A DNA stretch of 31,230 nucleotides from a virus (taxonomy: Duplodnaviria; Heunggongvirae; Uroviricota; Caudoviricetes). The DNA is taken from positions 1 through 31,230 of IMG/VR virus record IMGVR_UViG_2526164634_000010. One strand, 5' to 3'. The notes beneath the pieces are model-generated. The model searched no databases, had not been told where the DNA came from, and saw nothing but the letters and a program-made list of their open reading frames with translations. Position numbers and translations under genes: made by a program. This document shows, piece by piece, positions 656-20,140 of the stretch. Each line of letters opens with the position of its first letter. Within the stretch, counting starts at the first letter, position 1.

Positions 656-925
<270 letters not shown>

Positions 926-2725: not shown

Positions 2726-4116
2726 GCTATACCTCTCTTTTTCATGGCATCGAGCAGGATGTCCTGCACTGTTCGTTTTGAGTTGCGCCGCTCCATCACC
2801 ATTTCATCCATAGTGTCGGCAGCAATAATGTGGTGAATAAATACCGGACGATTGTGTCCGGCCTGTATCTGCCTGGTGGGGCCGATACGTTCAATAATTT
2901 GCTGATATTGCTCCAGGTCCCACCAGTGTGAGAAAAATACCAGTATATTTCCGCCGTCCTGCATGTTCAGGCCGTGGCCCGCGCTGGCTGGGTGTGCAAA
3001 GAGAACAGGAATCTTTCCGGAATTCCAGTCGCGCAGTGTCTGTGGATCCTGGTCGAGGTGACGACCGCGAGGGAATGCTTTAAGCAAGCGTTCAAGATCG
3101 TGTTTCCAGTGATAAGCAACCAGCACAGGTGCGCCAGCTGCTTCGGTCAGTATGCTGTCCAGCGCCTGTAGTTTGGTGTCATGCAGTTCTGACCAACTTC
3201 CGGTGTCATCTGTGTATACTGCGCCGCTGGCGATTTGCAGACACTTCAGTGTCTTTGCCGCGGCGTTCGGTGCTTCGATGCCTTCGCCATTCAGCTCGAG
3301 GAACATTTCCTTTTCCATTTCACGATACTGCTGACGGGCCTTCGGTGGCATATCCACGCGGATTACGTTATGGATGGGGTCTTTGATATCGAACCAGTCG
3401 GCCGCATCCAGCGAGAGGGTTACATCGGCTAACGCTCGCTGTATTTCACCCTGTGAGTGAGCAAAAGGCTCCAGTTTGGTCCAGCTCTGCCCCGGAAACT
3501 GTATCGAGTTGAACCAGCGTGAGGTAAACGCGCCGTAAGTGCGCCCGAGACGTTGCCCCTGGTCCACAAACCACGATTGTCCCCACAAATCTACCAGGCC
3601 GTTCGGTGCTGGCGTACCGGTGAGATTTATCCAGCGCCGGACATACTTATGCGCCACTTTGCCCAGCGCCGCCGCGCGCTTACCACCACCGCGCAGCCGG
3701 AAGGATTTTAGCCGGGTGCTTTCATCTGGAATGACAGTACCGAACGGCCATCGTTCTCCCAATTCTTCAATCAGCCAGACAAGGTTATCGTAGTTGATGG
3801 TGAACACGCTTGCGTTGCTGTTCGTCAGCGCCATAGAGCGCGCTTTGGCATTACCAATAATTGGCTGCACCTCGATATTGCGCAAATGTCCCCACTTCAG
3901 TGCTTCATCCGGCCATGTGCTGGCAGCCACGCGCAGCGGCGCGAGGACCAGTGCGGGGCATGTTTCTGCCCCTGCCATAAAGAGATCTTCCAGCGCAGTG
4001 AGCGTTGCCACGGTTTTACCCATTCCCATACCCGCCCAGATGTTGCCGCGCAGAATGTTAGTTTGGTGATTGATTATGAGGTTTTGATAAACTCTGGGGT
4101 GGAATATGCTATTCAT
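2722..4116 (-). CDS. SNF2-family DNA helicase / ATPase (phage replication)
   Basis: 464 aa; Walker A AGMGMGKT; DExx-type motif II VIPDESTRL; AGGTG RBS upstream of ATG at 4116. Confidence 0.85.
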   Translation of the reverse strand: MNSIFHPRVYQNLIINHQTNILRGNIWAGMGMGKTVATLTALEDLFMAGAETCPALVLAPLRVAASTWPDEALKWGHLRNIEVQPIIGNAKARSMALTNSNASVFTINYDNLVWLIEELGERWPFGTVIPDESTRLKSFRLRGGGKRAAALGKVAHKYVRRWINLTGTPAPNGLVDLWGQSWFVDQGQRLGRTYGAFTSRWFNSIQFPGQSWTKLEPFAHSQGEIQRALADVTLSLDAADWFDIKDPIHNVIRVDMPPKARQQYREMEKEMFLELNGEGIEAPNAAAKTLKCLQIASGAVYTDDTGSWSELHDTKLQALDSILTEAAGAPVLVAYHWKHDLERLLKAFPRGRHLDQDPQTLRDWNSGKIPVLFAHPASAGHGLNMQDGGNILVFFSHWWDLEQYQQIIERIGPTRQIQAGHNRPVFIHHIIAADTMDEMVMERRNSKRTVQDILLDAMKKRGIA

Positions 4117-4127
4117 TAATACACCTA

Positions 4128-4136
4128 TGGTAGAAT
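4128..4136 (+). promoter_or_regulatory. candidate extended -10 promoter (TGgTAGAAT) for the low-GC gene at 4180
   Basis: tggtagaat at 4128-4136 matches the extended -10 form TGnTATAAT at 5 of 6 hexamer positions; strong RBS ACGGAGG 7 nt before the ATG at 4180. Confidence 0.3.
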
Positions 4137-4179
4137 ATGGTCACTTCTCTCTCTATATATATAACTAACGGAGGCGGGT

Positions 4180-4977
4180 ATGCCCCTGGCGAAAATATTT
4201 ACAAAGCAAGTTTCTTTATTAACTATGTTTTCAGCGTTAGCTTATGCGATGGCATATTCTTTTCAGAAAGGTGTTGCATCGTATTATGGCTATCCAGACC
4301 TTTTTATTAAAATAGACTTAAATACGCTATTGTATTCGGCTGTGTGGCTTTTGTTTTTTAGTTTTTTATTTCTCGGCGCCTTATATGCGGCGTTGATGTT
4401 TGATTTGAAAGGGAAATATTATGTTCCATTTATTGTATTTATAGTTGTTATGCTAATGGCTAATATTTGTATAATAGGATTTCATTGGCCTTTTGGTTAT
4501 TTCTCCGAAACTTCTGTGATGAGTGTTCAGGATATTTTATTATTTGCTATGCTTTTGTTGAATTATCACAATGTGGTGTCCATGCCAATCCATAGTAAGA
4601 GACACGAACATCATATGGAGAGCATTAGAAAATTTGGGAGGCTTGCAGAGTATAAGAACGTATTTTATTATATCGATTTAAAAATCCTAAAGTCAGCTTT
4701 TCCTTTAGGGGTGATAACGTTGTTGATATTGAGCTATACATTCGGGAAGGTTACTGCATTTAAAAATAACGAATATTATATGGTAGATGGTAGTAATACT
4801 AAAGTGTTGCTCAATTCATTTGGTAGTGGTTTTGTTGTTGGTGATTGTGAGTCAAATAGCGCAAAATTTGAATTTGTTAATGATTTAAAAGGGATGAGAT
4901 TCACAATCATGTCCTCTAAAAAGGAAATAGCTAAATTAAAAGGGTGTTTCGAAATACGTGTTAAAAATACGGATTAA
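4180..4977 (+). CDS. low-GC moron: hypothetical multi-pass membrane protein with soluble C-terminal domain
   Basis: 265-aa ORF, markedly AT-rich versus flanks; several hydrophobic segments in the N-terminal half; no family recognised; opposite strand to the surrounding operon; own RBS. Confidence 0.6.
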   Translation: MPLAKIFTKQVSLLTMFSALAYAMAYSFQKGVASYYGYPDLFIKIDLNTLLYSAVWLLFFSFLFLGALYAALMFDLKGKYYVPFIVFIVVMLMANICIIGFHWPFGYFSETSVMSVQDILLFAMLLLNYHNVVSMPIHSKRHEHHMESIRKFGRLAEYKNVFYYIDLKILKSAFPLGVITLLILSYTFGKVTAFKNNEYYMVDGSNTKVLLNSFGSGFVVGDCESNSAKFEFVNDLKGMRFTIMSSKKEIAKLKGCFEIRVKNTD

Positions 4978-4989
4978 AGCATAAGTCTT

Positions 4990-5277
4990 TTATCCTTTAT
5001 TGCGGCTTAAAATAATGGCCTCCAGATTTTTGCTATCCAGCACCACTACGGTAAAGCCCAGCGCGCGCAACCGTCCGTGTTCGCGCAACTGGTCAGGCCG
5101 TGGTGGCTTGCCGGGGGATTTACATTCAACGAAAATGATACGACCGCCGGGTAGCAGAACAATGCGATCTGGTACCGAGCGGCGACCGGGGGATACGAAC
5201 TTAAAGGCAACCCCGCCAGCCTTTTTTACTTCAGCGACGAGGTGCTTTTCGATTAGGTTTTCACGTTCATAGGCCAT
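4990..5277 (-). CDS. VRR-NUC domain nuclease
   Basis: 95 aa; pattern FKFVSPGRRSVPDRIVLLPGGRIIFVECKSPGKPPRPDQLREH fits the VRR-NUC (PD-(D/E)xK-like) signature; start overlaps the upstream small gene. Confidence 0.75.
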   Translation of the reverse strand: MAYERENLIEKHLVAEVKKAGGVAFKFVSPGRRSVPDRIVLLPGGRIIFVECKSPGKPPRPDQLREHGRLRALGFTVVVLDSKNLEAIILSRNKG

Positions 5278-5471
5278 TAGCTTTCGCCTTCCTGCTTTTT
5301 GCGTTTCTTCATGCAGATAGCGCAGTTCTCAGGATGGTCATGCCATTCATCAATCCTGATACCTATGAACATCCATTTTCCGCATAGTGATATGGCTTCC
5401 CCCGAATTAAAGAAATGTGCTTTTTTTGACAGAGCGGGGAACCCCCAACCCTTATTATCGATATTAGACAT
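5277..5471 (-). CDS. small Cys/His-rich (probable Zn-binding) phage protein
   Basis: 64 aa; strong RBS AAGGAGGTG before ATG at 5471; residues C29, H45, H47, C51, C54; translationally coupled to VRR-NUC. Confidence 0.5.
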   Translation of the reverse strand: MSNIDNKGWGFPALSKKAHFFNSGEAISLCGKWMFIGIRIDEWHDHPENCAICMKKRKKQEGES

Positions 5472-5598
5472 CGTCCACCTCCTTACGCTTTTCGCGCATG
5501 TTCTGCATCAGACAAAAATCAAACCGACGTTCGCTTTGGCCCAGACCTGCATCGCCCGGTCGTACCCGCCGGACTGTTCAAGGTGCAAAGCCTCCCGC

Positions 5599-5623
5599 AC
5601 AGTCCGGTAATAAAGCGGACTGT
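5599..5623. promoter_or_regulatory. perfect 8-bp inverted repeat acagtccg-N9-cggactgt (candidate operator or RNA hairpin)
   Basis: Palindrome read from sequence in the 235-bp non-coding gap between the TIR-like gene terminator and the small Zn-protein gene; next to an AT-rich tatttaaat element. Confidence 0.3.
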
Positions 5624-5659
5624 CCCGGTATTTAAATGACATAGGGTTTTTATTCCCAA

Positions 5660-5685
5660 ATAAAAAACCCCGCGATGCAGGGTTG
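5660..5685 (-). terminator. intrinsic terminator after the TIR/SLOG-like gene
   Basis: On the minus-strand RNA: CCCUGC-AUC-GCGGGG hairpin (one G-U pair) followed by UUUUUU; immediately 3' of the ORF ending at 5706. Confidence 0.5.
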
Positions 5686-5705
5686 TAATCAACAATAAGG
5701 GGTAA

Positions 5706-6467
5706 TTACGAGGAAGCGTTAGCTATTTGAGCTTGTGTAAATTCGAAACCAGAATTTTGTAACCGTTGCACTAGACGAGGAACTGTTTCACGTACATGGT
5801 CGTTGAAATTCAGATACAAAATCCCGTTAGCATCAGAAGGCTGTTCTAGGTGCTGTTTCTGAAGGATTGCTACATTGCTGCGCCCTAAGGACGAAAGAAG
5901 CATACCCATCTCGAGTACAACGTTCTGTCTTGCGCGGGGTTGGATTTCTGCTTCACCGGCGCGCTTTGAGTATCCCATATCATCAGGTGTCAAAAGAACA
6001 ATCCCGAAACGGGTAGCAGTTTGTCCTTGCCCAATTTCACGTTCAAGCTCTTCAATAATGGTGAGTCCAGTCCCTCCCGTATTCTGCAAAATGAAATGGT
6101 CTGGTAATCCAAGTTTATGAAGGATTAGCTCAAGTTGCTCCTTTGCAGTATGGTCATGGCCGTGAACAATGAATATCTTTTTGGGGAGCTCAGATGGCTG
6201 TTCTACGGCTAGTGGTGTTGCCGTGGGCGGCGTTCCTAAATGGGTCATTATTGCAGTTTCAACATTGGGACGTTCTTGAGGGTTACCTTGAAACTGAATG
6301 GTCCGGGTGGTGTAAAGGTTAACAATTACGCCATTCGTTAAACGATAGCAGTCACAAGTCTCACGCTGTTCGTGGGAAAAATTGGTGAACCCACACTCCC
6401 TCAAAAAGTCAGGAAAAGTTTCTCTCGGGTATGGATAGGTGATCGGCATTTCAGTTAGTTCCTGCAT
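5706..6467 (-). CDS. two-domain protein: unknown N-terminal domain + C-terminal TIR-like/SLOG-like Rossmannoid nucleotide-processing domain
   Basis: 253 aa; C-terminal half has KKIFIVHGHDH (strand-1 motif of TIR-like COG4271-type proteins), GGTGLTIIEELE (LOG/SLOG-like) and RQNVVLEMGMLLSSLGRSNVAIL (xNVxxExG motif); N-terminal ~95 aa unrecognised; AGGAA RBS; cotranscribed downstream of the DNA polymerase gene. Confidence 0.6.
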   Translation of the reverse strand: MQELTEMPITYPYPRETFPDFLRECGFTNFSHEQRETCDCYRLTNGVIVNLYTTRTIQFQGNPQERPNVETAIMTHLGTPPTATPLAVEQPSELPKKIFIVHGHDHTAKEQLELILHKLGLPDHFILQNTGGTGLTIIEELEREIGQGQTATRFGIVLLTPDDMGYSKRAGEAEIQPRARQNVVLEMGMLLSSLGRSNVAILQKQHLEQPSDANGILYLNFNDHVRETVPRLVQRLQNSGFEFTQAQIANASS

Positions 6468-6531
6468 AAGTATTGTTCCTTTAATTTACTCGAATTCAGC
6501 ATGTCGCCATAGCTCGATAAGGTGAGTTATA

Positions 6532-8595
6532 TCAATCTTTTTTGTAGTGGTACGCCTCAAAACCGCCAGCGTTCAGTGGGATATCGGGCGCCCATTCGGG
6601 GTCAGTGGAGAGAAGCGCGGAAAGCGCTTTATCGTTGAAATCTTCTGTGTCAGGTGCTTCGGTGATCACCTCGTTGTGTACCGTCAGCACAATGCTGTAA
6701 CCGGCATCTTCGATAAGCGGCATGTTTCCGGCCAGAATGTCGCGGGCGGCCGCCTGGGTGATGTTCTCCACCAGCTTTCCGCCGTAGGTTTTGAGTCGTT
6801 GCCATTTACGCGAATAAGAGTTAACCCCCATGTAGGTGATATTCCCTTTTTCGATAACCGGAGACGGGTAGCATACAGCGCGTCCGGATGGTAGCTGTAT
6901 GCGCAGCCACGCGCCATCGCGGCGGATTTTAAGATAACCGCAATACAATGTTTTTTGCGGTGTGGCGATTGCAGTGCGGACGGTGCGCTCCAGTTCGTAC
7001 CAGAAATCACAGGTCGCGGGATGCGCCCGGCGCCAGAGACGTTTAAGTGAGTCGCAGGCGATAAATACCCGTTCAGAAAGCCCGTAGGTTGACTTGCGTT
7101 TAACCGATTCGTCGTACCAGCTTTTCGCCTCGCGGATAACATCGCGGGGAATGTTTGGTAGTGCGGCGTTCGCCAGCTCGTCGAGATCGAGACCGTAAAC
7201 CAGTGCAAAAGTGATGAAGGCCGACACACCACCACCATAACCCAGACCGAGTTCCATGACTTTACCGATCTGACGCATGTGTTTATCAACATCATCTGGT
7301 GCAATATCGAAAGCTTTTGCATACGCCAGTTTATATAAGTCCGGACCCGTTCCGGCGTCGTACTCTCTGAATGCATTCAGTTTCCATTCTTCTCCCGCCA
7401 GCCATGCCAGCATACGGCCTTCAATGTTCGACAAGTCACTTACCACCAGCTTTTTGCCTGTTGGCGCGATAATGCAGCCACGTAACGCTGAACTGGTTAG
7501 TTCCATGATATTGTCAAACAGCAGGTCTGCACATCCGGCTTTCAGTGCTTCGATGCCTTCGTCTATTTGTTCCTGTTTTAGTGAAGGGCGGGGAAGGTTC
7601 TGGGGCTGGAATAGCCGTCCGGCCCAACGACCGGTACGTGACGCCCCGCAGAACTGTAGCGTACCGCGTAAGCGCCCGTCGTGGCTTACGCCTTTCATCA
7701 GTGCCTTGTATTTACTGGTGCTGGTAGTACTGGCCTGCAGGCGGATAGCCAGCAGTTCTTTCACGGCAGATGGTAAATCGGGGTCGGCAATACGACGTTC
7801 CAGAGTACTGCGTTGCATGTCTGGTAGCTCCACACCGTAGGATTCAACAATGTGCTTAATCAACGCGTCTCGTTGTGTGGCTGCCTGCACTTCGCCATCA
7901 GTCATTTCCTGTGTACGCTTTGCCAGGCGCTTTTGTTCCTGGTCTACCGCGTCGATCGCAGCGCGTGCGAGTTCCACGTCCATGCAGACGCCCCGGTCAT
8001 TGATCTGCTGATCACGATGCCAGAGCGCCAGTTCTGTCCCCTGATAATTCCACTTCGGCAGACGTTTATAGACTTCGCGCATTGCCTCGATATCCAGTCC
8101 GGCGTAAGCAACAAAGCGCCGCCATTCTTCCGGGTGGGTTTTGCTGGTGGCCCGGCGCAGTTTGCTGTTTTTCGGGCGTGGCTTACAGAACAGCTGGATC
8201 AGCGCTTTACCTTCTTTGTCCTTCGCTTTGTCTTGCGGGACGCCTAGTACTTCGCAGAGTTCCCCCAGAGACCCCGGGAGACCGTGCGCCAGCGCCTGCA
8301 CCATTGTGTCGCGCCAACGTTCGACTGGCGGTGCCAGGCGCGGCATTGCATAACGCAGAACGGTGCGGTCGAAGTGAGAGTTATGGAAATAAAGCAGGGT
8401 TTCAGGGTCTGCGATTGCTTCGTATAAGCCGTGTGGAATACCACCACCGGCAGTGATATCCCACACGTTTACTGGCCCGTCGTTGATAGCCCATGCGAAA
8501 AGCATCACTTCAACGCCTTCGGCATACGCATGGGTACCGTTCGTAATAGGGATTTCGCAATAGGTTTCCAGGTCGCCCCATAGTATATTGGACAT
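6532..8595 (-). CDS. family A DNA polymerase with N-terminal 3'-5' exonuclease domain
   Basis: 687 aa; exo motif GDLETY; pol motif [16 protein letters not shown] (RxxxKxxxxGxxYG); motif C-like VHNEV. Confidence 0.9.
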
Positions 8596-8641
8596 GTGTT
8601 TACCTTGGTTTTTATTCTATTAACTGATTAAAAGATTAATT

Positions 8642-9271
8642 ATGCATATGATCCAATACTTGATTGACCATACAGAGCATCTGGAGAAAATAGCTGGATA
8701 TATTTTTTCATGTTTGATTGTTATGGGAGTCTGGATAAGAAAGATCATTTTTAATTATAAGTATAAAGAGCCTAAATATGTTAAGAAGTTAATTTTATAT
8801 TTAGTTAAGTATGAACGTTATCTGGATGAGGAGGATAAGAGTGCCATAGAAAAAAGAATAAATGATAAAATTATTCGTGATGCGCTGAAATTGCAATCAT
8901 CTTATAACCGAAGAGATGTTATTTACATTTGCAATAGATTAGAAAAAAGACAGTATATAAATCAGTTGATTAAGCTTCAGAATTATATAGAGAAAGATAA
9001 CGGAGTGTTTTTTATTAATGTTGATTTTTCAGGTTTTTTATTTATTATTAGTCGTCTGTTTTCCTTTCTGTGTTTTGTGCTGTTTACCCTTTTTTCTATT
9101 ATCTGCATTATTTCCATAGGGCAAAATGAAGGCCTTTTAAATTATCTTGTGTATATGGTTATGATAATAGTTTTAGAGACTGTTGGTTTTTGGATGTATG
9201 ATACTTTCCCGTCTAAGAAAAAGATCTGTGAACTAAATAAAGAATTGAGAAAGATTAAGATTCCTGAGTGA
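8642..9271 (+). CDS. low-GC moron: hypothetical membrane protein
   Basis: 209-aa ORF, very AT-rich; hydrophobic N-terminal segment and two C-terminal hydrophobic segments around a Lys/Glu-rich region; opposite strand to flanking replication genes; no family recognised; start uncertain (ATG 8642 or 8648). Confidence 0.5.
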   Translation: MHMIQYLIDHTEHLEKIAGYIFSCLIVMGVWIRKIIFNYKYKEPKYVKKLILYLVKYERYLDEEDKSAIEKRINDKIIRDALKLQSSYNRRDVIYICNRLEKRQYINQLIKLQNYIEKDNGVFFINVDFSGFLFIISRLFSFLCFVLFTLFSIICIISIGQNEGLLNYLVYMVMIIVLETVGFWMYDTFPSKKKICELNKELRKIKIPE

Positions 9272-16307: not shown

Positions 16308-16730
16308 ATGCGTAATATTCAACAGGTTTTAGAGCGCTGGGGTGGCTGGGCAGCGAGTGAAGGTGGTAGCGTCTACTTTCCTCCTGTTGCAGCCGGGTTT
16401 AAGAATCTGCTACCCGCGACGCAGTCTGGAAGGCTGAAATGCAGTGACAATGACGGTCTTATCATCAACTCCGCTATGAGCTGCCTGAAGAAAAAAGATC
16501 CGTATCTGTGCACGCTCCTTGAGTGGCATTACGTCCAGGCCATGCCCGTGCGGGCGATGGGTGAGAAGCTCGGCGTATCTCACACCCACGTTCTGAAGAG
16601 GCTTCAGGCGGCAGAGGGATTTATTGACGGTTGCTTAGCCATGCTGGATGTGGTGCTCGAAATGGATCAGTCGGTTCAGTCAAAGCCTCAGGCTATCAGG
16701 ACTTTGCGTAGGAGCTGCTCGGCGGCATAA
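16308..16730 (+). CDS. Q-type late antiterminator (phage 82/QuuD-like)
   Basis: 140 aa; N-terminus MRNIQQVLERWGGWAA, AAGFK and RLQAAEGFIDG segments resemble remembered Q82-family sequences; located upstream of the lysis cassette. Confidence 0.7.
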   Translation: MRNIQQVLERWGGWAASEGGSVYFPPVAAGFKNLLPATQSGRLKCSDNDGLIINSAMSCLKKKDPYLCTLLEWHYVQAMPVRAMGEKLGVSHTHVLKRLQAAEGFIDGCLAMLDVVLEMDQSVQSKPQAIRTLRRSCSAA

Positions 16731-17418: not shown

Positions 17419-17427
17419 ACAAGGTTC
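17419..17427. repeat. target-site duplication, left copy (acaaggttc)
   Basis: Identical 9-mer directly abutting both IS termini; IS66 usually gives 8 bp, so the ninth base may be coincidental. Confidence 0.7.
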
Positions 17428-17457
17428 GTAAGCGGCTCGCCAGAACCGTATTGATAT

Positions 17458-19029
17458 TTACTGAGAGGTCAGATCAACTTTCCAGGGCAACAGATCGCGT
17501 ACCCGGTTTGCCGGCCAATCCTGGATATGCTCAATGACGTAACGCAGCCATTTTTCTGGTTCCACATTGTTCAGACGGCATGTGCCGATCAGCGAGTACA
17601 ACACCGCCGCATGTTCGCCACCGCTGTCGGAACCCGCGAACAGCCAGTTTTTCCGGCCTACGGCCACTCCCCGTAAGGCGTTCTCTGCGATGTTGTTGTC
17701 GATTTCCACCCAGCCATTACTGCAGTACACGTTCAGGCCATCCCACTGTTTCAGCAGGTATGCGAACGCTTTTGCCGTATCCGAGTGACGCGACAGTGTT
17801 TTCATCTGAGTCTGTATCCAGTCATACAGTGACTGCATCAGTGGCGCAGCTCTGGCTTTTCTTGCCGCCAGACGCTGTTCTGCTGTACATCCCCGGACTT
17901 CTGCCTCTATGGCATACAGTTCACCGATACGCTGCAGGGCTTCCGTGGTGATGTCGGTGGGCACTCTTGCATGCACATCGTGGATTTTTCTCCGGGCATG
18001 AGCCATACACGCGGCTTCCGTTATTCTGCCGGATTCGTATAACACCCGGTAACCACCGTAAGCATCGGCCTGAAGCACACCGCTGTAACCGGCCAGATGA
18101 TTTTGTGGATGGATACCTTTCCGGTCCGGTGAGTACGCGAACCAGACCGCCGGGGGCATTTCCGAACCGGCGTTACGGTCATCACGGACGTAGACCCACA
18201 GCCGGGCGGTCCGGGTTTTACCGCTGCCCGGCTCCTGGACCGGGACGGGGATATCATCAGCATGGACTTTACCGGGCATCAGCACATACTGGCGCAGGAC
18301 GTCATACAGCGGCTCCAGCAGTTCAGCAACGGCACCTGTCCAGCGCCCCAGCGTGGCGCGGCTCAGCTCCACGCCCTGGCGACGGTATATTTCTGACTGG
18401 CGGTATAACGGCAGATGGTCTGCATATTTCCCGGTAACAACATGGGCCAGAAGCCCCGCTCCGGCATAACTGCGTGCAATGGGTTTTGAAGGTACTGTTG
18501 CCTGCACGATATGGTCGCACCGACAACAGGCCAGTTTCGGACGTTGTGTTTCGATAACCTTAAAGGCGCTGCTGATAAGCTCCAGTTGCTCTGACACATC
18601 ACACCCCAGAGGACTGAGGTCACCACCACAGGCCGGGCAGCATTCCTCTTCCGGCCGGATGACCCGGGTTTCACGGGGAAGTGAGGCCGGTAACGGTTTA
18701 CGGGCTGAAGACTGGCGCAGGGCGGATGGCAGTACCGGGTCATATTGCTCACCCAGCGTTTCCGCCATTTCTTCCTGAAGTGCGCTGATTCGCTCCTGTG
18801 CTTCCTGTATCTGCCGTTCGGTTTTAGCGCGAAGTTTTTCTGAGCTTTTACCGAACTGCATGCGCTGCAGTTTCGCAACCAGCGCCTTCAGCCGGTTGAT
18901 TTCGGAAGCATAAGCCGCCACCCGCTGTGAGAGCAGGCGGTTGTATTTCGCCATCTGGCGGATGGTGTCCTGTTGCGTCTGCAACAGTGCCCGCAGGCGG
19001 GCATTCTCATGAGCAAGTGAGGTGTCCAT
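17458..19029 (-). CDS. IS66-family transposase TnpC (orf3)
   Basis: 523 aa; N-terminal coiled-coil, Cys motif CPACGG...CCRCDH and catalytic core typical of IS66 TnpC. Confidence 0.8.
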
Positions 19030-19048
19030 ATCCTCACTTTACAACGGG

Positions 19049-19396
19049 TTATATGCGGATGCCAGCGCGTTCCGTTCGTTTCGGGTGCTTCCAGTCGATG
19101 CCTTCGAGAAGCATGGACAACTGAGCCGGAGTAAGGTGAACCTTTCCATCGCGGGTGACCGGCCAGACGAAGCGGCCCCGCTCCAGGCGTTTGGTGAAGA
19201 GGCACAGTCCGTCACTGTCAGCCCACAGCACTTTTATCTGGTCACCCCGGCGTCCGCGGAAGATGAACAGATGCCCGGAGAACGGGTCATCCTTCAGGAC
19301 GTTCTGAACTTTTGAGGCCAGGCCGTTAAAACCATTTCGCATATCGGTGATACCGGCAACCAGCCAGATACGCGAACCGGCAGGGAGAGATATCAT
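19049..19396 (-). CDS. IS66-family TnpB (orf2)
   Basis: 115 aa; MISLPAGSRIWLVAGITDMRNGFNGL matches the remembered IS66 Orf2 family. Confidence 0.8.
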   Translation of the reverse strand: MISLPAGSRIWLVAGITDMRNGFNGLASKVQNVLKDDPFSGHLFIFRGRRGDQIKVLWADSDGLCLFTKRLERGRFVWPVTRDGKVHLTPAQLSMLLEGIDWKHPKRTERAGIRI

Positions 19397-20046
19397 CAGT
19401 GGCTGCTCCCTTTCATTTCGCGGATAAGTGTCTGTAATAACGCCGGTGTCAGTTCACCTTTCAGCCTGAGAGTTCCGGCCGGCAGAACCAGCTCGCAGCA
19501 CAGACTGTCTGGCAGTGTATTTATCTGTTCAGGTATCTGCACTGGTGCCGGGATTTTATTATCCGGCTCCGGAGTTAACGTCACGGGAAGTAGCGATGTT
19601 TCATGTTCGCCGGGCGGTTGCAGGCCACCGTTACGCCAGAGATGCCGCCAGTTAAAGAGCAGGTTATCGTTAATTCCATTCTCTCGAGCTATTTGTGCGA
19701 CACAGGCACCGGGTAAAAGAGTTTGCTGAACCAGTCTCCATTTAAACTCCGGTGAAAATCGGTTCCGGCGGGGTTTCTCTGCTTTCACAGGCTGAGTCAC
19801 GGTCGGGGCTGAAGGGTATCGCCCCGGGAAAAGAGCCCGGGCCAGTTGCCCGCAGGAATATTCACCGGAAAGAGGCCAGTCAGTGAATACCTGGTGAAAT
19901 CGCCTCACCAGAGAAAAAATGGCGGTTTTGCTGACACCAGTCTGCGCAGAAATGCGCGGGTACGACAGTGACTCGTCAAATCTCAGCTGTAGCACACGCA
20001 GGATCAATTCTGGATTATCTGCCAGTACCGCTTTTCGTGCATTCAT
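19396..20046 (-). CDS. IS66-family TnpA (orf1), HTH protein
   Basis: 216 aa; first ORF of the IS66 operon; overlaps orf2 start. Confidence 0.7.
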   Translation of the reverse strand: MNARKAVLADNPELILRVLQLRFDESLSYPRISAQTGVSKTAIFSLVRRFHQVFTDWPLSGEYSCGQLARALFPGRYPSAPTVTQPVKAEKPRRNRFSPEFKWRLVQQTLLPGACVAQIARENGINDNLLFNWRHLWRNGGLQPPGEHETSLLPVTLTPEPDNKIPAPVQIPEQINTLPDSLCCELVLPAGTLRLKGELTPALLQTLIREMKGSSH

Positions 20047-20131
20047 CTTAAATGTCCTTTTACTGCGAAAATGGACATTAGTATCGGAAACAGGAAAGGG
20101 AGGCGAAAGACGGTTTAAATGATGCGCTTAC

Positions 20132-20140
20132 ACAAGGTTC
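20132..20140. repeat. target-site duplication, right copy (acaaggttc)
   Basis: Identical to 17419-17427. Confidence 0.7.

Follow-up and report, generated by a model that had tools for sequence, protein, structure and literature searches.

A prophage-borne TIR protein of Escherichia coli with a predicted TBP-like N-terminal domain, a candidate one-protein defence system with a possible link to RNase HI

We analyzed a stretch of 31,230 nucleotides (nt), hereafter the window, which comprises positions 1 to 31,230 of the IMG/VR virus record IMGVR_UViG_2526164634_000010 (Caudoviricetes), and focused on one gene of its replication block that encodes a protein ending in a TIR domain. In our judgement this gene most probably specifies a defence-type TIR effector, carried as phage cargo and fused to a TBP-like sensor. 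The encoded protein is exactly RefSeq WP_001157068.1, where it bears the name 'TIR domain-containing protein'. An earlier reading of this DNA, made by a model from the letters alone (hereafter the sequence-only reading), had quoted several motifs from this open reading frame (ORF), and all are present: FIVHGHDH at amino acids (aa) 99-106, GGTG...EELE at aa 131-142, RQNVVLEMG at aa 180-188, and the N-terminal MQELTEMPITYPYP. Positions 4900-8700 of the window are 100% identical to E. coli FDAARGOS_1059, and the window covers the leftmost part of a prophage of some 40 kb that is inserted beside yfhL. This prophage encodes an integrase, an SNF2-type helicase, a VRR-NUC protein, a family A polymerase, an Enc34-type SSB, a DUF2800 protein, a LexA-like repressor, VapE, the antiterminator Q, and lysis and morphogenesis proteins. 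The window starts in the chromosome, with shoB (~382-462) and yfhL (656-916, minus strand), followed by a tyrosine integrase gene (1125-2528), which places the left prophage-chromosome junction inside the window. Three deposited E. coli phages (vB_EcoM-611R5 and relatives) have a 98.4% identical TIR gene at the same place.

The immediate surroundings of the gene are given in Table 1. The sequence-only reading had placed it in the replication operon, between the polymerase and VRR-NUC genes and with its own terminator. The position in the replication block, after the polymerase gene, stands, whereas VRR-NUC is not the next gene: a frameshifted pseudogene of an ANR-family regulator and a 64-aa ORF (5277-5471) lie between them. 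This ANR gene, immediately 3' of the TIR gene and its terminator, is intact in sister prophages that lack the TIR gene and in the prophage that carries a second allele of it. The terminator was also found, as a stem of 8 pairs (5684-5666) followed by TTTTATTT, the sole such site that a terminator scan returned in 4900-6700.

Table 1. Features of the TIR gene and its surroundings (positions in the window).
Feature	Position	Strand	Description
Cargo cassette	5646..6543	minus	About 0.9 kb: last 12 nt of the polymerase gene, 64-nt spacer with Shine-Dalgarno sequence, TIR gene, terminator
TIR gene, coding sequence	5706..6467	minus	Complete, ATG start, 253 aa, stop codon 5706-5708 (ORF list)
N-terminal TBP-like domain	6234..6446	minus	aa 8-78, predicted beta-alpha-beta4-alpha; proposed sensor module
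Linker	6180..6233	minus	aa 79-96, flexible, Pro/Thr/Ala/Gln-rich; length and sequence variable across the family
TIR domain	5709..6179	minus	aa 97-253, Cap12/Pycsar effector class; predicted NAD+ hydrolase
Glu186 codon (GAG)	5910..5912	minus	Candidate catalytic glutamate in NVVLEMG; codon read from the sequence
Shine-Dalgarno-like AAGGA	6477..6481	minus	About 9 nt 5' of the ATG; read from the sequence
Intrinsic-terminator-like hairpin and T-tract	5656..5684	minus	AACCCTGCATCGCGGGGTT; starts 21 nt past the stop codon
Family A DNA polymerase gene	6532-8595	minus	Pfam DNA_pol_A; TIR gene 64 nt downstream
ANR-family transcriptional regulator	~5464-5642	minus	Frameshifted pseudogene, annotated in the identical RefSeq genome
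VRR-NUC gene	4990-5277	minus	Downstream of the TIR gene, non-adjacent

The predicted structure upholds the layout proposed in the sequence-only reading, a C-terminal domain fused to a separate N-terminal one. The linker between them has a pLDDT below 50 at aa 80-92, falls in indel-rich alignment columns, and shares only 0-30% identity with homologues. By sequence, the C-terminal half is assigned to the TIR domains of the Cap12/Pycsar class. It matches PF10137 with 108.4 bits against a cut-off of 24.7 (E 3e-31; positions 1-118 of the 119 of the model, aa 97-222), adopts the flavodoxin-like fold of TIR domains in the model, and a profile built from 42 sequences matches the solved structures of Cap12 (7un8, 9lmq) and PycTIR (8jsj). 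Hence, of the double label TIR/SLOG given at first, only TIR survives, since no SLOG/LOG-type match was obtained at E<=1 in Pfam, NCBIfam or PADLOC. The glutamate of VLEMG had been proposed as the catalytic residue, and this residue, Glu186 (in R-x-R-Q-N-V-V-L-E-M-G), is indeed invariant among the 42 aligned homologues and aligned with E86 of ElSTING (NVVFEFG), a protein that loses its catalytic activity through the E86A mutation (PMC12421889). The domain is thus predicted, from its homology with Cap12 (TIR-STING) and PycTIR, to hydrolyze NAD+ through Glu186. The TIR domain is 73-76% identical across distant phyla.

The protein shares with Cap12 and PycTIR the PF10137 subfamily and the catalytic motif R-x-NVV-x-E-x-G, but it differs from them in having neither a STING nor a cNMP-binding domain and no CD-NTase or cyclase gene nearby; it does not take as input a cyclic nucleotide messenger produced by a partner enzyme. 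Membership in the known TIR systems was rejected case by case. For the CBASS Cap12 (TIR-STING) proteins, the NCBIfam equivalogs scored 34.8 and 30.5 bits where 450 are required, over the TIR part only, and no CD-NTase gene is annotated in the prophage. The PADLOC model of the Pycsar effector PycTIR covers only aa 132-234, again the TIR part, and no pyrimidine cyclase gene is annotated in the prophage. Thoeris ThsB was discarded because there is no ThsB_TIR match and the neighbours are the polymerase gene and the ANR pseudogene, with no ThsA gene. No conserved effector neighbour was found among the loci of the homologues.

The N-terminal domain, which the sequence-only reading could not place, is assigned by predicted structures and sequence profiles to the TBP-like domains of the RNase H3-N / RnlA-NRD type, on lines of evidence that are individually weak but concordant. 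Residues 8-78 are predicted to fold as beta-alpha-beta4-alpha with a pLDDT of about 90, in the full-length model as well as in that of the domain alone, and the helices cover one face of the sheet, as in RNase H3-N and in the NTD and NRD of RnlA. The three top matches of the domain profile in PDB are the NRD of LsoA (E 0.017), RNase HIII 3vn5 (E 0.037), and 4py5 (E 0.41). Among 27 family members compared with Pfam, RnlA_toxin (PF15935) is matched by 9 and DUF3378 (PF11858, the N-domain of RNase HIII) by 3, every other family appearing once only; the best E values are 1.7e-4 and 0.005, respectively, and all these matches are sub-threshold. The domain encoded in the window scores 15.5 bits for a cut-off of 27, and by sequence it does not belong to PF15935 or PF11858. 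One database homologue, P0113, carries a precomputed PF15935 match. When the domain profile is aligned with the single E. coli RnlA sequence using hhalign, only the 22-residue hairpin motif of the NRD is recovered, with a probability of 14%. A Foldseek search of the domain against the predicted structures of viral proteins (BFVD) gave no match at E<=0.001.

The element that the domain has in common with the NRD of RnlA and LsoA and with RNase H3 is the beta4-beta5 hairpin, with the motif Y-x-[ST]-G-[ST]-x-x-x-Q-G, which reads N50-x-Y52-x-T54-x-T56-x-x-x-Q60-G61 in the protein of the window. In the crystal structure of RNase H3 with an RNA-DNA hybrid, the DNA strand is contacted by Tyr43, which stacks against a deoxyribose, and by Ser45 and Ser47 at a phosphate, while the amide of Gly52 binds the 2'-OH of the RNA; the isolated N-domain of RNase H3 binds RNA/DNA hybrids only (PMC4132731). 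The equivalents of these four residues (Y52, T54, T56, and G61) are well conserved in 142 diverse N-domains: position 52 is aromatic in 98% of them, positions 54 and 56 are Thr or Ser in 87% and 92% (Thr itself at position 56 in 88%), and position 61 is Gly in 99%. The comparison of hybrid contacts covers these positions, as the equivalents of Glu27, His28, and Arg32 have no reliable alignment. Also conserved in the 142 domains are N50 (92%), Q60 (99%), and a basic residue at position 42 (Arg or Lys, 88%). Given the alternation of residues along the strands, N50, the aromatic residue 52, T56, and Q60 should sit on the exposed face of the sheet.

The likeness to RnlA, LsoA, and RNase H3 thus concerns the fold and the hairpin motif, and the NRD is the TBP-like domain most similar to ours. 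RnlA is also an anti-phage suicide enzyme, an anti-T4 toxin, whose NRD has been associated with RNase HI. The differences are several: the effector is a TIR domain (a predicted NADase) where the others have a HEPN RNase or an RNase H nuclease, sequence similarity is below the family thresholds, there is one TBP-like copy where RnlA and LsoA have two, and no RnlB-like antitoxin gene is adjacent. Previous work found that the TBP1 domain of RnlA is needed to bind its RNA substrate. It also found that pull-downs from cell extracts recover RNase HI together with the NRD, and that RNase HI is required both for the activation of RnlA after T4 infection and for the restraint of RnlA by RnlB (PMC5308261).

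The N-terminal domain is not restricted to TIR proteins. A search with its profile among 1.84 billion representative proteins retrieved 846 proteins, in which it precedes very different C-terminal parts. It is fused to a dCTP-deaminase defence protein of PADLOC (P0192, 617 aa, E 7e-173; also P0207, P0165, and P0216), to a 350-aa region with multiple transmembrane segments (P0256), to DUF1653 (P0254 and P0199), and to a recurrent C-terminal module of about 60 aa (in proteins of about 160 aa like P0155, P0161, and P0196) with the motif LLKRVK..L...GL.V..V.DS......EYD.YCSLV..GSEIYIRKL, as well as to other uncharacterised regions. Two proteins (P0171 and P0174) have the domain in tandem, as in RnlA and in TBP itself. 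The fusions with the deaminase and with the transmembrane region lie on contigs too short to show their genomic context. An N-domain found before such varied C-terminal modules is what one would expect if a sensor or adaptor served interchangeable effectors. The members of the PADLOC 'dCTPase' family listed above have the same N-domain before a kinase-like and deaminase body, the difference being that they would deplete dCTP where our protein is predicted to deplete NAD+.

The TIR gene is variable cargo and not a fixed part of the replisome. The polymerase/VRR-NUC region of the prophage is present in 159 of 5,426 complete E. coli genomes, and among these 159 prophages 37 carry the allele of the window and 10 a second allele, which makes about 47 with the gene. 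In the others the slot is empty or holds a gene for an ATP-binding, Bro-N, YfbU, DUF7446, SAM methyltransferase or Ant protein. In comparison with the prophage of E. coli O103:H2 12009, which has no TIR gene, homology ends at position 5645 of the window and restarts at 6544, and this break delimits a cassette composed of the gene and its terminator. The cassette is also poorer in GC (about 46%) than the replication genes on either side (54-57%). The gene thus shows three of the traits of morons, namely presence/absence polymorphism, deviant composition and a terminator of its own, but we found no promoter of its own. The survey of synteny in related prophages that the sequence-only reading had called for therefore favours single-gene immunity over an accessory of the replisome, two of the roles it had proposed, and it does not reveal the housekeeping family conserved in all relatives that would have spoken for the latter.

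It is nonetheless fair to ask whether the gene benefits the phage itself, as an accessory of replication or nucleotide metabolism in which a hybrid-binding domain would address the TIR enzyme to primers or R-loops, there to process a nucleotide or an NAD-derived substrate. The gene is on the same strand as the polymerase gene and follows it by 64 nt with no detected promoter of its own. This position is kept in all 38 close full-length relatives in IMG/VR, whose TIR genes (64-100% identical) directly follow polA (polymerases 74-100% identical), and also in a Serratia prophage. Furthermore, the same operon has a DUF4406 gene in sister prophages, a family that we take to be nucleoside-deoxyribosyltransferase-like; we had considered it as an occupant of the same slot and rejected this, as it sits downstream of the ANR gene. 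Yet the TIR gene is missing from about 70% of otherwise near-identical prophages, which have unrelated genes instead, its GC content is deviant, and it puts a terminator inside the operon. Moreover, the nearest characterised TIR domains are cell-killing NADases and the family is common outside phages, in integrative and conjugative elements, integron arrays, restriction-modification (R-M) operons, and islands rich in toxin-antitoxin (TA) genes. An accessory role is thus very unlikely.

The second E. coli allele occupies the same slot (positions 3502-4263 of locus L015, E. coli 23CRST009). The two alleles are about 89% identical in the TIR domain and only about 46-47% in the N-domain. Since the identities of the polymerases (89-98%) are out of step with that of the TIR alleles, exchange of alleles between sister prophages is suggested.

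Outside this phage lineage, the family is found as a stand-alone gene on mobile and defence-related DNA. One homologue is carried by an integrative element of Vibrio cholerae that also encodes TrwC and an SMC-like ATPase; others lie in an islet with an integrase, Mrr, and PemK, in conjugative elements, in an integron-like cassette array of Vibrio, and in an island with DUF4062, a reverse transcriptase, ParDE, and YoeB. Such contexts bear on the idea that the protein serves counter-defence, its TIR enzyme destroying or pre-empting the messengers of Thoeris, CBASS or Pycsar, or manipulating NAD+ pools. The gene is phage-borne, would be expressed early, and its TIR fold acts on NAD-derived nucleotides, as this idea would have it. 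However, most homologues are in bacterial chromosomal islands and conjugative elements, near restriction or TA genes, and not in lytic phages, and PADLOC lists the family among its models of defence candidates. In the papers retrieved, no TIR-type anti-defence protein is mentioned, and the anti-Thoeris and anti-CBASS proteins described there are sponges (PMC12043709). We regard counter-defence as extremely unlikely.

We then clustered all ORFs within 3 kb of the TIR gene in 80 species-level homologue loci, and only two sets of neighbours recur in at least 4 of the 80: RNase HI and type I R-M genes. In 11 of the 80 loci (L025/L019, L065, L066, L077, L078, L085, L087, L089, L091, L092, and L093), the stop codon of the TIR gene is followed after 0-10 nt by an RNase HI gene in the same orientation. 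For a gene present roughly once per genome, adjacency at this frequency is not due to chance. The linked loci belong to Verrucomicrobiota (one of them on a conjugative element), Chloroflexota/Dehalococcoidia, and Acidobacteriota. Each has a different set of flanking genes, and their TIR proteins form three separate groups in a rough neighbour-joining tree. The RNase HI of L019/L025 has intact catalytic residues (DEDD and His, read by eye), and the ten others align with E. coli RNase HI along almost its entire length, at 46-60% identity. The type I R-M genes (hsdM, hsdS, and hsdR) are beside the TIR gene in 7-9 of the 80 loci (L075, L079, L083, L084, L094, L095, and L099, also L028 and L071), sometimes on both sides of it, in several Alphaproteobacteria, in Acidobacteriota and in Verrucomicrobiota. 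Type I R-M operons are a classical home of abortive-infection genes. A small partner gene upstream was considered as well and rejected: the ORFs found at L005 and L008 are mutually unrelated, and no family of small ORFs recurs in the clustering.

Taken together, these elements lead us to propose that the gene, as mobile cargo of a temperate E. coli phage, would act as a one-protein abortive-infection or superinfection-exclusion system. Like other TIR NADases, its TIR domain would be active only when packed head-to-tail in an oligomer or filament. SfSTING, SARM1, AbTir, and SpbK, the latter from the element ICEBs1 of Bacillus subtilis, are inactive until such packing forms a composite active site, and in SpbK this occurs when the N-domains dock on the dodecameric portal of the phage (PMC12847820, PMC11984713). 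During infection, several sensor domains would line up along a polymeric ligand, for which RNA-DNA hybrids or some other duplex formed in replication or transcription are the likeliest candidates, RNase HI serving as a partner or gatekeeper. In E. coli this RNase HI would be the product of the chromosomal rnhA, and in some lineages a dedicated copy. The clustering of the sensors would raise the local concentration of TIR domains, the active sites would assemble, NAD+ would be drained and the infection aborted. We rate the full chain, an abortive-infection NADase triggered by clustering on hybrids and/or by RNase HI, as equally apt to prove right or wrong. Taken separately, RNA-DNA hybrids or RNase HI as the trigger are a tentative suggestion, to which we give somewhat less than an even chance.

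The following points weigh against this proposal. As to RNase HI, 8 of the 11 linked loci come from one clade, two Dehalococcoidia pairs are beside recA/recX and could therefore be the housekeeping rnhA, and neither the window nor any of the 80 viral loci checked shows the linkage. The interaction of RNase HI with the NRD of RnlA (PMC5308261) is based on pull-downs and was not reproduced in vitro, and the related RnlB-NRD pull-downs of the same paper were criticised for lacking controls. As to the domains, none of the sequence matches to RnlA and RNase HIII reaches the threshold (E 0.017-0.4, hhalign 14%), the conserved hairpin motif could be purely structural, and the enterobacterial clade to which our protein belongs has lost the otherwise conserved K10, G13, W31, W51, and G55. 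The TIR part of the predicted structure is of moderate confidence only (pLDDT of about 65-75), and the region of its BB-loop (aa 127-142, LQNTGGTGLTIIEELE) is highly conserved, modelled with low confidence, and devoid of Trp and Phe, when the BB-loop aromatics W34 and F39 of ElSTING hold the ribose and the nicotinamide (PMC12421889). As to expression, no sigma-70 promoter with at least 8 of 12 matches was found within 300 nt upstream of the gene, by scans that leave room for weak or non-sigma-70 promoters. The gene may thus be transcribed only with the early/replication operon of the phage, which would be odd for a gene that protects the lysogen and is the main weakness of that reading. Finally, a search of the literature (by PDC-S35, RefSeq accession, PHROG identifier, phage name, and TBP-TIR) found no paper on the family.

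The remaining objections concern the pace at which the N-domain evolves and its charge, and they bring in a competing view of the ligand. The mean identity to homologues is 35% in the N-domain and 76% in the TIR domain, and between the two E. coli alleles the non-synonymous divergence (dN) is 0.52 and 0.10, respectively; their synonymous sites are saturated and positive selection is thus not assessable. Between near-identical alleles, all the non-synonymous changes found in the two domain windows compared are in the N-domain, in numbers too few for statistics. The N-domain is neutral to slightly acidic (6 Lys/Arg for 8 Asp/Glu), unlike most nucleic-acid binders. Such fast evolution fits a protein ligand engaged in an arms race equally well. 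The effector logic could thus be the same and the N-domain sense a multimeric phage protein (portal, capsid or replication protein) that clusters the TIR domains.

The precedent for such a protein ligand is SpbK, whose layout is nearly identical: an N-terminal sensor of about 90 aa (residues 1-94), a flexible linker of about 18 residues, and a C-terminal TIR NADase with a catalytic glutamate (E192). SpbK, too, is cargo of a mobile element, and it becomes active when a multimeric ligand clusters it (PMC11984713, PMC12847820). However, its sensor is a four-helix bundle that binds the clip of the portal and ours a predicted alpha/beta TBP-like domain; its TIR domain is nearest to that of SPARTA and ours to those of Cap12/Pycsar (PF10137). 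With these two differences, and no match to the PADLOC spbK model at E<=1, membership was rejected, and SpbK is an analogue and not a homologue. Besides, the exposed face of the hairpin is conserved across phyla, which speaks for a shared ligand and not for phage proteins particular to each lineage, the fold and motif fit nucleic-acid-binding TBP-like domains, and a phage protein as ligand leaves the recurrent linkage with RNase HI unexplained. We therefore see a phage protein as a rather unlikely trigger, and keep a nucleic-acid or RNase HI trigger as our working proposal.

A bolder extension is that the N-domain constitutes a previously unrecognised class of innate-immune sensors, which would take RNA-DNA hybrids, or RNase HI through its state or occupancy, as a sign that a phage is replicating, and be mounted on interchangeable effectors. 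The latter would include the TIR NADase, the dCTP deaminase, a protein of the membrane, DUF1653, and, in RnlA/LsoA, the HEPN RNase, and some lineages would encode their own RNase HI gatekeeper. We hold this extension to be on the unlikely side. If true, it would explain the long-puzzling need for RNase HI in the activation of RnlA.

The sequence-only reading had regarded such a fusion as undescribed, which does not hold: the family is already catalogued, and SpbK is a characterised analogue of its design. The protein is a full-length member, with no difference, of the PADLOC candidate PDC-S35 (model PDLC05003, E 6.8e-109, aa 10-253 on positions 3-245 of 245) and of PHROG 16442 (E 2.4e-109). 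PDC-S35 is a computational candidate, for which the PADLOC library gives no function, mechanism or assignment of the N-terminal domain. About 2,700 database clusters match the protein at E<=1e-3, some through the TIR domain alone; relatives were confirmed in about 247 species genomes from many phyla, and 152 viral contigs encode relatives. Both the sequence family (PADLOC, PHROG, RefSeq) and the sensor-linker-TIR design (SpbK) are thus already known. The literature search returned no assignment of the N-domain and no report of RNase HI linkage for PDC-S35, and queries on PF10137, TIR, TBP-like, RNase HIII, and dCTP deaminase gave general TIR or HEPN papers alone. Relative to the literature searched, three elements appear to be new: the placement of the sensor in the RNase H3-N / RnlA-NRD domain family, the reuse of this domain on the dCTP deaminase and other effectors, and the recurrent linkage with RNase HI.

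Other parts of the replication module of this prophage vary as well. A 209-aa ORF of about 29% GC (8642-9271, plus strand) lies a short way upstream of the polymerase gene in the opposite orientation; it matches PHROG 10579, an uncharacterised family, and has no Pfam or PADLOC match; its place is taken by a SIR2-family gene in E. coli 23CRST009 and by DUF4145 (HEPN-like) in the Serratia prophage (L011). This looks like a second slot for defence genes or morons. A third variable slot lies between the helicase and VRR-NUC genes, where a hydrophobic 265-aa ORF of about 33% GC (4180-4977, plus strand, again opposite to the operon) has no match in Pfam, PADLOC or PHROGs; one relative has a DUF6338 gene there and phage 611R5 a different gene of 305 aa. 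Scans of the neighbouring unknown ORFs with PADLOC, Pfam, and PHROG returned nothing informative. Further along, a copy of IS679 (IS66 family; ~17425-20133, minus strand, with tnpA, tnpB, and a 523-aa transposase) separates the antiterminator Q gene (16308-16730) from the holin and lysis genes and is absent from the prophage of E. coli FDAARGOS_1059. It may cripple the expression of the late genes, leaving a defective prophage that still has its cargo genes.

Very few single-protein TIR defences have a known trigger; the clearest case is SpbK, which senses a phage portal. With the sensor placed and repeatedly found wired to RNase HI and other effectors, what was an anonymous TIR protein now offers a hypothesis that is cheap to test: bacteria may detect the replication of phages through RNA-DNA hybrids or RNase HI, and then destroy their NAD+. 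If confirmed, this would represent a new class of triggers in bacterial immunity and tie the observations on RnlA and RNase HI to a general mechanism. It would also make the replication module of this prophage lineage a hotspot of defence genes, with SIR2, the HEPN-like DUF4145, and TIR genes in neighbouring slots.

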